A DNA stretch of 22,963 bases from a virus (Duplodnaviria > Heunggongvirae > Uroviricota > Caudoviricetes): the IMG/VR virus record IMGVR_UViG_2802429249_000003, positions 1 to 22,963 of that record. One strand, given 5' to 3'. The position numbers are program-made. Positions 6,001 to 9,000 of this stretch are shown in pieces (position 1 is the first letter of the stretch; every line of letters begins with the position of its first letter).

Positions 6001-9000
6001 TACCAGGCGAGCAGTGAATTCAGGACAGAGCTGTGCGACGACAATGATGCTGTCTCGCTTACCTTGTTCTCCTTCAAACAGGTAATGCTCATATTGAACT
6101 TTAAAACCTAAGTTATTGATTTTCTCGGAAACAGCCATTGGCGGTTTCCGGATGATGTTTTTAGCAACCAGGCGTTCGATACTACGTTTAACATCTGAGT
6201 GCTGACTACCCACCAGCTCTGCGATCTCAACGCTGGTCATGGATGCTTTATCGTTAAAAATTGCGGTGTTCACTGATACCTCCTTACGGATAAATTATTG
6301 GGATCACGGTTCAGCACTTCTCAGTTACGCGCTTTTTCCAGAGCCATGCATCCCTATAAGCAGCCTCGATCCCATGGCATATCCGCATATCCTGAAACCA
6401 ATGCTTCCGTTCCCATATCTGCCAAGATCGAGGTTTAATGCGATCGCTGATGCCTGTGATGGAGAACATAGCCAGTACGGGTACTTTCAGGCGTCTTCCT
6501 TTCTGGATATGCTTACGCCAGTCATTGCGAAGATTTGCCCGCATGCTGAAATAAGCACCAACAGGAAATGCAACAAGAAATGCCGCTACCTGAACAAAAA
6601 GGAGTCGCCAGAAATTATGGGAATCATCTGGAGTGAGTTTGTTCTTCTGTTCAATACCAACCCGCGCCTTGTTACCTTCATCTGGACGGTTAGTGCTTTT
6701 GGACTTGGCGCCTGGCTCGGACACTGGCTTGCCAAAAATCGAGATAAGCGGAAAGAGTTCAATGCCGTCGCTGATGAATTGTTCCTGATCCTTGACGCCT
6801 TCCGCGAGGGTTGCCGAGACGGAAAACGGGATATGCCACATATATCCAGAGACGATTTCAGAAGACTGCGCCCTCACCTGAGCAGCAGACAAGCACGAAG
6901 TTACCAACAAGCCGTAGATAACTTTTTTAACGCACTGAAAGCTAGTGAGCTCTATGAAGACAGGCGGATTGTTCCGGTTATCAAAACTCCCGCAGAAATT
7001 CTTCCCAGCCTTAACACGCTGATTAAGTTTCTGAAGCATCGCTAAGCACTGTGACATATCACACCTCCGATTGCTTACCTTGCCCCTCTTCTGTGTGCGC
7101 TAAATCAGGATGGATATACGGGATACTTGGATCCAGATGGCAGAGAATAGCTACGTCCTCTGGAACACCTCTCGTTTTCCACTTTCCAACACCTTGACTG
7201 CCACGAGGCTTTCCTTTCTTTGGGAACCTGCGGCCAATAGCGGCATTGGTTTTAAATTGAGTTTTTAATATTTCATAAAGGGTCATTCTTTAGTCTCACA
7301 CCGGATACTCTGTTATCCAAGAATGTTAAACGCGAGAACCCAAAGTATCAAGAAATTCTGTTACTTTAGTATCAGCAGCCATGAAAGGAGAAGAAAAATG
7401 AAATCTTTAGGTGAACGCCTCATCAACGCACGACAAAAAGCTGGGTTAACGCAAGATGCGTTGGCTAAAAAAGCAGGGGTCACCAGAGTTGCAATCAGTA
7501 AAGCCGAGCAAGGCCTTACAAAAAGTTTCAACGGTGACACCCTTTTTAAAGTCGCAGCTGCACTGCAGTGTTCACCGCAGTGGCTTCAGAGCGGAGATGA
7601 AAAAGATAAGCATTGGGAAAATAATGTTAAGAGCTGCCCACAGAGAGACACAGCACACTCTTACCCTGTAATTAACTGGGTTCAGGCAGGATTATTCGCA
7701 ACTGCTGGTGATGACTACAACATGTATGATCAGGATAACTGGAGGCATTCTGTAAAATACGCTGGTGAGAGGGGGTTCTGGCTGGAAGTGCACGGAGACT
7801 CAATGACTTCGCCCGTAGGAATAACATTTCCTGAAGGAATGTCGATCCTTGTCAACCCAGATAAAGAAGTTTTTTCAGGGTGTTACGTCATCGCCAGAAA
7901 AAAATCCACCAATGAAGCAACATTCAAAAAATATATTTCTGAAATGGGAAAGGCGTTTCTAAAGCCCCTTAATCCACAATATCCAATCATAGAAATGGAC
8001 AATGATTGCGAAATAGTAGGTGTTGTAGTTGATGCCAGGTGGGATATTTTCTGACCAGACTCAAAACACAAAAAGAAACCAAAGTATCAAAAATCACTTG
8101 CCACACCTTGATACCTTAGTTACCATAAAACAAAGTTCGTAACTGAGGTATCATCTCATGATCAATAAAGCTACAACTCTTGACTGTCTTGAAGAACTGA
8201 AAAACCTCGGCAGTCTCATTACACTAATAGCCAAAGCAACGCCAGATGCTACGCTCTCTGGCGATATCGAGTCATGCGCAGGACTGGCATGGGATATGAC
8301 AAATAGCATATCCAGAAAGCTATCGTCAGCAATGCTTTTACAGAACAAAAATTCTGCAATCAACAACCGTCTTCGCACCCAACGCGAAGCCTGCGGCTTA
8401 ACAACCGCCGAACTCGCCAGGCTGCTCGATCTCGATGAAGAAATTATCATCCAGTGGGAGAGCGGAGAGTATGAACCAACCATCAGTATGCTTATCCCAC
8501 TGGCAAATATTCTTGGCTGCGATCCGATGTGGCTGTTAACCGGTAAACCAACCGCAGGAGATACTTGCGCATGAAAAAGTTCAAAAACATAACCGTTCTC
8601 CATGTTGATGACTTTGATTATACAAACCCGGACCTTCTCCCGGAGGTTGTAAAAGCAATAGATGTTGCCGATATAGTGATTAGAGGAAAGAGAATTGTCA
8701 AAAACAGGCTCGCATGCACTTCAGGAGCAATGACAGAAACAACCTCACAGCAAGATAATTACGAAGGCATTTGTCTGGAGCCTGATTCATTTGCGGTAAA
8801 TGTTTATCATTTATTGCATGCAACACAGGTATTACATATGTCCAGTAATCACGAAACGAAAATACTCGGCAGCGAAATTCTGAATTTTGCATGTGAGTAT
8901 GCAAAAGCTGCTGCCGAAAAAGAATTAGCGCAATAACAACAAATATGCTCTGAACGTTTATTACGGTTTTATCGCCGGGGATTGTTACAACCTTTATTCA

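Follow-up and report, generated by a model that had tools for sequence, protein, structure and literature searches.

The stretch of DNA analysed here (the window) comprises positions 1 to 22,963 of the IMG/VR virus record IMGVR_UViG_2802429249_000003, a member of the Caudoviricetes. This report describes its immunity region, in which a cI repressor gene lies between two intergenic regions that carry repeated operator-like sites. The stretch from 7000 to 8579, which spans cro, cI, and the gene L10, is 99% identical to the Shiga toxin 2e (Stx2e) phage phiP27 (AJ298298) and shares 84% identity with several Stx1a- and Stx2a-converting phages. Similarity to phiP27 ends near position 8579 of the window. 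An immunity region of the phiP27 type is present in approximately 195 of 5,426 complete Escherichia coli genomes.

The cI gene (L11 of phiP27, where it is annotated as a putative lambda repressor) extends from 7398 to 8054 on the + strand and encodes 218 amino acids. An alternative ATG start at 7323 was discarded; the start at 7398 has a GGAG Shine-Dalgarno sequence, agrees with the call of the Prokaryotic Genome Annotation Pipeline (PGAP), and gives a canonical helix-turn-helix (HTH) N-terminus. The product contains an HTH_3 domain (E 1e-14) and a Peptidase_S24 domain (E 1e-22). It shows 100% identity to phiP27 CI and 45% identity to P22 C2 over the full length. The alignment with full-length lambda CI (E 1e-33) is chiefly with the C-terminal domain, and the N-terminal domain matches P22 C2 (E 3e-9) and 434 Cro. 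When aligned with lambda CI, the product retains VQAG at the cleavage site, GDSM with the serine, and TFKK with the lysine; these catalytic assignments are presumed from what is known of lambda CI. The recognition helix reads TRVAISKAEQG.

A small Cro-type gene (L12 of phiP27, 7059 to 7286 on the − strand, 75 amino acids) diverges from cI over an intergenic region of approximately 100 base pairs (bp) at 7287-7397. A structure model of L12 gives a Cro fold that is predicted to be all-alpha and resembles N15 and P22 Cro. This gene leads a leftward early operon, which is unbroken in the PGAP annotation and contains cro, a hypothetical protein, Rha-type regulators, replication genes, and Q. On the other side of cI, L10 (8158 to 8574 on the + strand, 138 amino acids) heads a rightward operon of the early-left type. 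L10 has a C-terminal HTH (HTH_3 at residues 72-126), belongs to phrog_4739, whose function is unknown, and has the identical start in the PGAP annotation of GB089. The layout is cro, right operator (oR), cI, and then a second control region and rightward operon, which is the geometry of lambda.

The gene behind cro is annotated differently in two records. The phiP27 GenBank record places L13 on the + strand (6239-7045), and PGAP calls a − strand open reading frame (ORF) instead in GB089 (6311-7057). Neither frame has a Pfam or PHROG match. The − strand call suits an unbroken leftward operon.

The hexamer GTATCA is found on the + strand at 7345-7350, 7369-7374, 8084-8089, and 8148-8153, and on the − strand at 8109-8114 (TTGATAC at 8108-8114). 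The initial annotation had named these five copies, each preceded by a purine, as a shared operator half-site on both sides of cI. Its positions 8148 and 8109 are correct, while 7346, 7370, and 8085 should each be lowered by one, and all five intergenic copies do read AGTATCA or GGTATCA. The window holds 20 copies in total, compared with 9.85 ± 2.65 in dinucleotide shuffles, and none of 100 shuffles reached 20. Five of the 20 fall within the 214 intergenic bases at 7287-7397 and 8055-8157, where approximately 0.1 would be expected (Poisson P for at least five copies, 5e-8 at the shuffle rate and 4e-7 at the rate seen outside these regions). The proposed clustering around cI is far above chance, and the enrichment over a shuffled background holds. 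The remaining 15 copies are dispersed over coding regions, where almost every one shares its strand with the presumed genes, and they look like codon usage rather than operators.

The hexamer proved to be the stronger of the two halves of an imperfect 14-bp dyad, GATAC-N4-GTATC, with three sites on either side of cI. A scan of the window for this dyad returned 13 positions with at least 8 out of 10 matches, six of which lie in the 214 intergenic bases. In every site one arm is a perfect GATAC and the other is degenerate, which is why reading the sequence alone had revealed a lone hexamer and had overlooked one site entirely. The half-site proposed earlier is thus one arm of the full unit; the partner arms and site Oa had been missed, and the number of sites is 3 + 3 (oR and left operator, oL) rather than 2 + 3. 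The extended half-site is G-A-(T/A)-A-C-T-(A/T), and a flank that is mostly A gives the hexamer the form GTATCA. A repeat finder placed the hexamers within longer repeats, GTTACTTTAGTATCA at 7360 and GTAACTGAGGTATCA at 8139, with a further copy as the reverse complement of TGATACCTTAGTTAC at 8109. It also returned a 20-mer common to 7335 and 8074 (family D4, at sites Ob and Od) with 18 of 20 positions identical.

The sites are labeled Oa to Of from left to right, and the scores given here are those of a position weight matrix (PWM) described below. Three sites are located in oR. Oa (7304-7317, GATACTCTGTTATC) adjoins the start of cro, at approximately +1 to +13 of the predicted promoter pR. 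It matches the consensus at 9 of 10 positions with arms CGGATAC and TTATCC, and is the weakest match of the six (8.0 bits, PWM rank 10). Its orthologue in Stx2_12E129, an 84%-identical Stx2 phage, is the perfect palindrome GATACTTAAGTATC. Ob (7336-7349, GAACCCAAAGTATC, 11.7 bits) lies over the −35 of pR and, across the 24 oR haplotypes described below, is invariant but for two positions in its left half. Oc (7360-7373, GTTACTTTAGTATC) is nearest to cI, is conserved, and is the top PWM match in the window at 19.2 bits. It is likely the analogue of OR3.

The other three sites are located in oL. Od (8075-8088, GAAACCAAAGTATC, 17.0 bits) is the distal site, upstream of the −35 of the predicted promoter pL, and its orthologue in an IMG/VR relative (L110) is the perfect palindrome GATACTTTAGTATC. 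Oe (8110-8123, GATACCTTAGTTAC, 14.9 bits) lies between the −35 and −10 of pL. Two single-base variants of Oe, in two haplotypes, occur among 29 oL haplotypes, and its placement is the same in all genera examined. Of (8139-8152, GTAACTGAGGTATC, 13.1 bits) lies at approximately +6 to +19 of pL and overlies the L10 Shine-Dalgarno sequence GAGG (8145-8148). Of is kept in the E. coli lineage and is present in Photorhabdus. It is doubtful in Citrobacter, and no clear counterpart was seen in the Yersinia and Salmonella loci compared.

Other candidates were set aside. A LexA box, CTGT-N8-ACAG, was considered near 7309 and 7357 in oR, and the second arm is absent. The sequence at 7027-7040 (GTTTCTGAAGCATC) has the sixth-best PWM score in the window (11.5 bits) and overlaps the start that PGAP assigns to the gene behind cro. 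This match and one at 2820-2833 (10.8 bits) lie in coding sequence and were treated as chance.

A promoter scan predicts pR on the − strand, with a −35 of TTGATA (7351 to 7346), a 17-bp spacer, and a −10 of TAACAT (7328 to 7323); it would drive cro. The right arm of Ob together with its flank forms the predicted −35. The predicted pL (8098 to 8126 on the + strand) has a −35 of TTGCCA (8098-8103), a 17-bp spacer, and a −10 of TACCAT (8121-8126). Oe occupies the predicted spacer, and the TAC of the −10 comes from its right arm. The earlier reading of the two regions as oR and oL is supported, with one motif on both sides of cI that overlaps predicted pR and pL. The TTGATA-17-TANNAT arrangement of pR recurs at equal offsets in the oR of Yersinia, Photorhabdus, and Salmonella, and in Serratia the right arm of Ob likewise forms the −35 of pR. 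The TTGNNN-17-TACNNT form of pL recurs as TTGACG/TACTTT in Yersinia, TTGACA/TACATT in Photorhabdus, TTGCGA/TACATT in Salmonella, and TTGAAC/TACAGT in Serratia. Support for the predicted promoters comes from this recurrence of the hexamers across genera and not from an excess in the scan.

For cI itself, a possible promoter (pRM) of the form GTATCA-16-TAGTAT is found within Ob and Oc. It is weak. Its −10, TAGTAT at 7367-7372, lies inside Oc and is a candidate only, and the A at position 2 of this hexamer is lost in the Stx1 and Stx2 relatives.

Conservation was assessed in close relatives, whose 75 oR and 74 oL sequences reduce to 24 and 29 distinct haplotypes, respectively. Invariant positions make up 51 of 60 in the dyad arms, 15 of 24 in the dyad centers, and 66 of 142 in the other intergenic sequence (arms versus other intergenic positions, Fisher P 2e-7). 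A scan of genome contigs contained no CI relatives at 60-85% identity, and identity drops from >90% to 51%. Intermediate relatives were obtained through IMG/VR, which gave L110, and through homologs of L12. L110 encodes a CI that is 86% identical with the same recognition helix. Its spacers are mostly rewritten, and all six sites persist. A PWM was trained solely on the six L110 sites and run over approximately 23,000 window positions. The top five positions were Oc, Od, Oe, Of, and Ob, and Oa was tenth. At 11.5 bits or above, the score of the sixth-best position, approximately 0.5 matches per window are expected by chance.

Homologs of L12 were used to reach prophages of Yersinia, Photorhabdus, Salmonella, and Citrobacter. 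The prophages of these four genera encode a homologous Cro, and their CI helix takes the form (S/T)RVAISKAE(Q/L)G. Each has four to six dyads of the GATAC type, with positions and spacing kept while the spacer sequences differ. The spacing is 32 bp for Oa-Ob, 24 bp for Ob-Oc, and 34-35 bp for Od-Oe. In the 56 half-sites of the GATAC group, the successive positions are G (100%), A (77%), T or A (57% and 39%), A (88%), C (93%), and T (73%), followed by A or T.

Where the helix differs, so does the half-site. GAAAC-N4-GTTTC sites accompany the helix SRVTISKIELG in two Providencia-type loci. In a Serratia prophage whose CI is 51% identical and contains the helix SRMAISKIEMG, the sites read TAAAC-N4-GTTTA and keep the same spacings. 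As a positive control, the same 5-N4-5 search of P22-type loci returned TTAAG-N4-CTTAA, with three sites in oR and more in oL, which we take to be the known P22 operators. In a matrix of counts, each helix type is accompanied by four to six sites of its own consensus and none or one of the distant ones, compared with a uniform expectation of 0.12 per locus. We infer that an HTH repressor reads these sites, and the covariation of helix and half-site is the strongest support at hand.

One of the loci reached, Providencia alcalifaciens locus L130 (1233-2000), has its repressor called as a 155-amino-acid product with only the S24 domain, and the HTH is located upstream in another frame. This suggests that cI at L130 is frameshifted and possibly defective.

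Taken together, the sequence comparisons make it highly probable that this region is the lambda-style immunity switch of a phiP27-type prophage, with CI flanked by two operator regions of three dyads each, to which it is expected to bind. CI dimers would occupy each dyad through the helix TRVAISKAEQG. CI on Oa, at approximately +1 to +13, and on Ob, over the −35, would shut pR and with it cro, the regulators of the Rha or antirepressor type, the replication genes, and Q. Oc lies over the candidate cI promoter and would serve in negative autoregulation and as the first target of Cro. CI on Oe, in the −35/−10 spacer, and on Of, just past the start, would shut the rightward pL, and Od could act as an auxiliary site upstream. 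The fixed Oa-Ob spacing of 32 bp (approximately three helical turns) and the Od-Oe spacing of 34-35 bp would suit cooperative binding. Autocleavage of CI at Ala97-Gly98, stimulated by RecA in the SOS response, would free both promoters. By analogy with lambda and P22, we also infer a hierarchy of sites, cooperativity, and looping between oR and oL over approximately 770 bp.

Several points weigh against this interpretation. The literature search returned no binding experiments on these operators. Oa is weak in this window, at 8 bits and with a right arm of TTATC. The GATAC and GAAAC counts overlap, since the two consensus sequences differ at only 2 of 10 positions. The PWM and footprint comparisons gauge conservation and not independent recurrence because the relatives are orthologous, and the overlapping promoter hexamers account for part of that conservation (the right arms of Ob and Oe). 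The promoter scan found four promoter-like sites, barely more than the 2.9 in shuffles, and gave no rightward promoter for cI in oR. In lambda, OR2 is centered at −42 relative to pRM. If TAGTAT is the −10 here, Ob would lie near −37, and activation of pRM in the manner of lambda is therefore not supported.

The interval between cI and pL was examined for a rex-like insertion and a terminator. Twenty bp separate the cI stop at 8054 from the start of Od at 8075. Within 8055-8157 no complete ORF reaches 40 amino acids (those listed there extend into cI or the L10 region), and the PGAP annotation has no gene in the interval. The absence of a rexAB-like insertion, noted initially, is borne out by these 103 bp lacking an ORF between the cI stop and the next gene. 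The terminator scan gave no intrinsic terminator in 8055-8157, whereas a GC-rich hairpin followed by a T-run is present after cI in Yersinia, Photorhabdus, Salmonella, Citrobacter, Serratia, and P22-type loci (L126, L127, L128, L131, L010, and L113). Since the phiP27 lineage lacks this terminator, cI transcription may run into L10, which slightly qualifies the remark that there is no rex-like function.

The A/C-rich sequence at 8055-8074 (CCAGACTCAAAACACAAAAA) varies in length among the relatives through the gain or loss of 7-bp units of the ACACAAA type. This length polymorphism moves cI relative to oL and leaves the distance between the operators and pL unchanged.

Oe and Of are in opposite orientation and together form an inverted repeat (I5, 8109 to 8153 on the + strand) with 15-bp arms that match at 14 of 15 positions (93% complementary). 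The predicted RNA fold of 8109-8153 has an energy of −20 kcal/mol (z −5.8), compared with −20.5 kcal/mol (z −6.1) in L110. No Rfam family matches within 7287-8157. The L10 Shine-Dalgarno sequence lies inside the right arm. Transcripts initiated at pL would carry only this arm, and the potential to form the hairpin is limited to transcripts that start upstream of pL. One alternative is accordingly that Oe and Of act mainly at the level of RNA, where a hairpin in cI read-through transcripts would hide the ribosome-binding site (RBS) of L10 or serve as a processing or termination signal. Consistent with this are the retention of the fold in L110, the location of GAGG in the right arm, the lack in the E. 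coli lineage of the cI terminator that its relatives have, and the fact that the two arms agree with each other better than either does with the operator consensus. However, any two dyad operators placed in opposite orientation will be complementary in part, and the variants seen are single G-U-compatible changes or a mismatch, with no compensatory double change, in the few lineages sampled. There is also no T-run 3’ of the stem, and it is therefore not an intrinsic terminator, and in the other genera Oe occupies the same place without a hairpin partner. A mainly RNA-level role is for these reasons considered unlikely. A combined arrangement, in which the terminator was lost in the phiP27 lineage and the Oe/Of operators double as an RNA hairpin that sequesters the L10 RBS in the cI read-through of a lysogen, is put forward with equal reserve and is doubtful. 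Were it true, pL transcripts would start in the loop with the RBS open, and one DNA element would be both operator and translational insulator.

A second alternative is that a regulator other than CI binds the sites, either the Cro-like L12 alone or the HTH protein L10. A stretch of 1.5 kb encodes three proteins of the HTH type, and L12 accompanies the sites at every locus examined, so that the comparison of loci cannot tell CI from Cro. No 138-amino-acid gene of the L10 type is called 3’ of cI in Yersinia, Photorhabdus, Salmonella, or Citrobacter, where the first gene called encodes 36-68 amino acids (these products were not compared with L10). L10 is an unlikely binder because these four genera keep the sites without such a called gene. 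The half-site also follows changes in the recognition helix of CI, and a system in which only Cro bound would have no precedent and would deprive CI of its targets. To our knowledge, CI and Cro use common operators in every characterised lambdoid switch. Binding by L12 alone or by L10 is thus very improbable. The last alternative, that the GTATCA blocks are merely core promoter elements and chance, would account for the Ob arm (pR −35), the Oe arm (overlapping the pL −10), and Of (over the Shine-Dalgarno GAGG), all of which would be conserved anyway, but it is scarcely credible given that conservation extends to sequences that are not promoter hexamers (Oa, Oc, Od, and the left arm of both Ob and Of), that the sites are dyads and form perfect 14-bp palindromes in relatives, that the half-site shifts with the CI helix while promoter positions stay constant, and that the 5-N4-5 search also recovers genuine P22 operators.

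The nearest characterised homolog of this CI is C2 of P22, for which the complex of the N-terminal domain with its operator has been solved (PDB 2R1J). The geometry is the same, with 5-bp arms around a 4-bp center. The P22-type loci (L113-L120) likewise have three sites between the divergent repressor and cro genes and more sites 3’ of the repressor, approximately 34 bp apart. The specificity differs. P22 combines the half-site TTAAG with the helix SNVAISQWERS, whereas GATAC is combined here with TRVAISKAEQG, and 5 of the 11 helix positions differ. TTAAG-type sites number zero in the oR and oL of the window and six in the P22-type loci. With a different half-site and helix, this phage should be heteroimmune with P22. 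The sites in oR are spaced 32 and 24 bp apart here and 23 and 25 bp apart in the P22-type loci, and a terminator follows the repressor gene in those loci but not in the phiP27 lineage.

Lambda shares the order of cro, oR, cI, and oL, with pL in the direction of cI, as well as tripartite operators on both sides. The C-terminal domain of CI is homologous, including the cleavage and catalytic motifs. Lambda operators are 17 bp long, have another sequence, and are spaced 23-24 bp apart. In lambda, rexA, rexB, and a terminator lie between cI and oL, and neither the rex genes nor the terminator is found here. Lambda Cro has an alpha+beta fold, in contrast to the all-alpha prediction for this Cro.

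Site number varies among Stx phages, with three sites in oR and two in oL for 933W, and four sites in oR for H-19B (PMC8065619). Like the phage described here, 933W and H-19B are Stx-converting lambdoid phages of E. coli with early promoters controlled by CI. The present region has 3 + 3 sites with a specificity of its own, and no phage record was found at approximately 60-90% CI identity; 933W and H-19B are set beside it by description only. The literature searched contained no description of the phiP27 operators, and the original genome paper, which lies outside that search, may list them. The result is a new operator specificity within the well-known class of lambdoid switches, and the accepted picture of these switches is unchanged.

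Immunity of the phiP27 type is present in phages that convert to Stx1a, Stx2a, and Stx2e production, where repression of the early promoters gates induction and hence the release of toxin. The GATAC-N4-GTATC consensus with 3 + 3 sites offers a concrete map of the switch that can be put to the test and a predictor of immunity groups among Stx prophages. The GATAC, GAAAC, TAAAC, and TTAAG half-sites with their matched helices on one scaffold form a natural series for the evolution of repressor specificity.

Features elsewhere in the window were also noted. Two Rfam matches at gathering level lie on the − strand, a C4 antisense RNA at 5206-5293 (84 bits) and isrK at 5318-5394 (65 bits). Both are within the 5’ part of an ORF at 4789-5451 (− strand) with Phage_ASH and Rha domains, and the start of this ORF may be miscalled. 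The pair looks like an RNA-controlled antirepressor module, similar to P1 immI or to Gifsy isrK, that would add a second layer of immunity in the early-right operon. A full-length Rfam match to the sok antitoxin RNA (117 bits) at 405-578 on the − strand implies a toxin-antitoxin locus of the hok/sok type beside the Q antiterminator gene (615-1025, − strand). No tRNA genes were found in the window.

Two integrase genes are present, at 12061-13260 and 13587-14864. The second is followed by a 932-amino-acid AAA/SEC-C protein (15134-17932), a YagK/YfjJ protein (21370-22050, − strand), and a DUF3987 fragment (22345-22866, − strand). The sequence beyond approximately position 8579 looks like two integrated elements in tandem.

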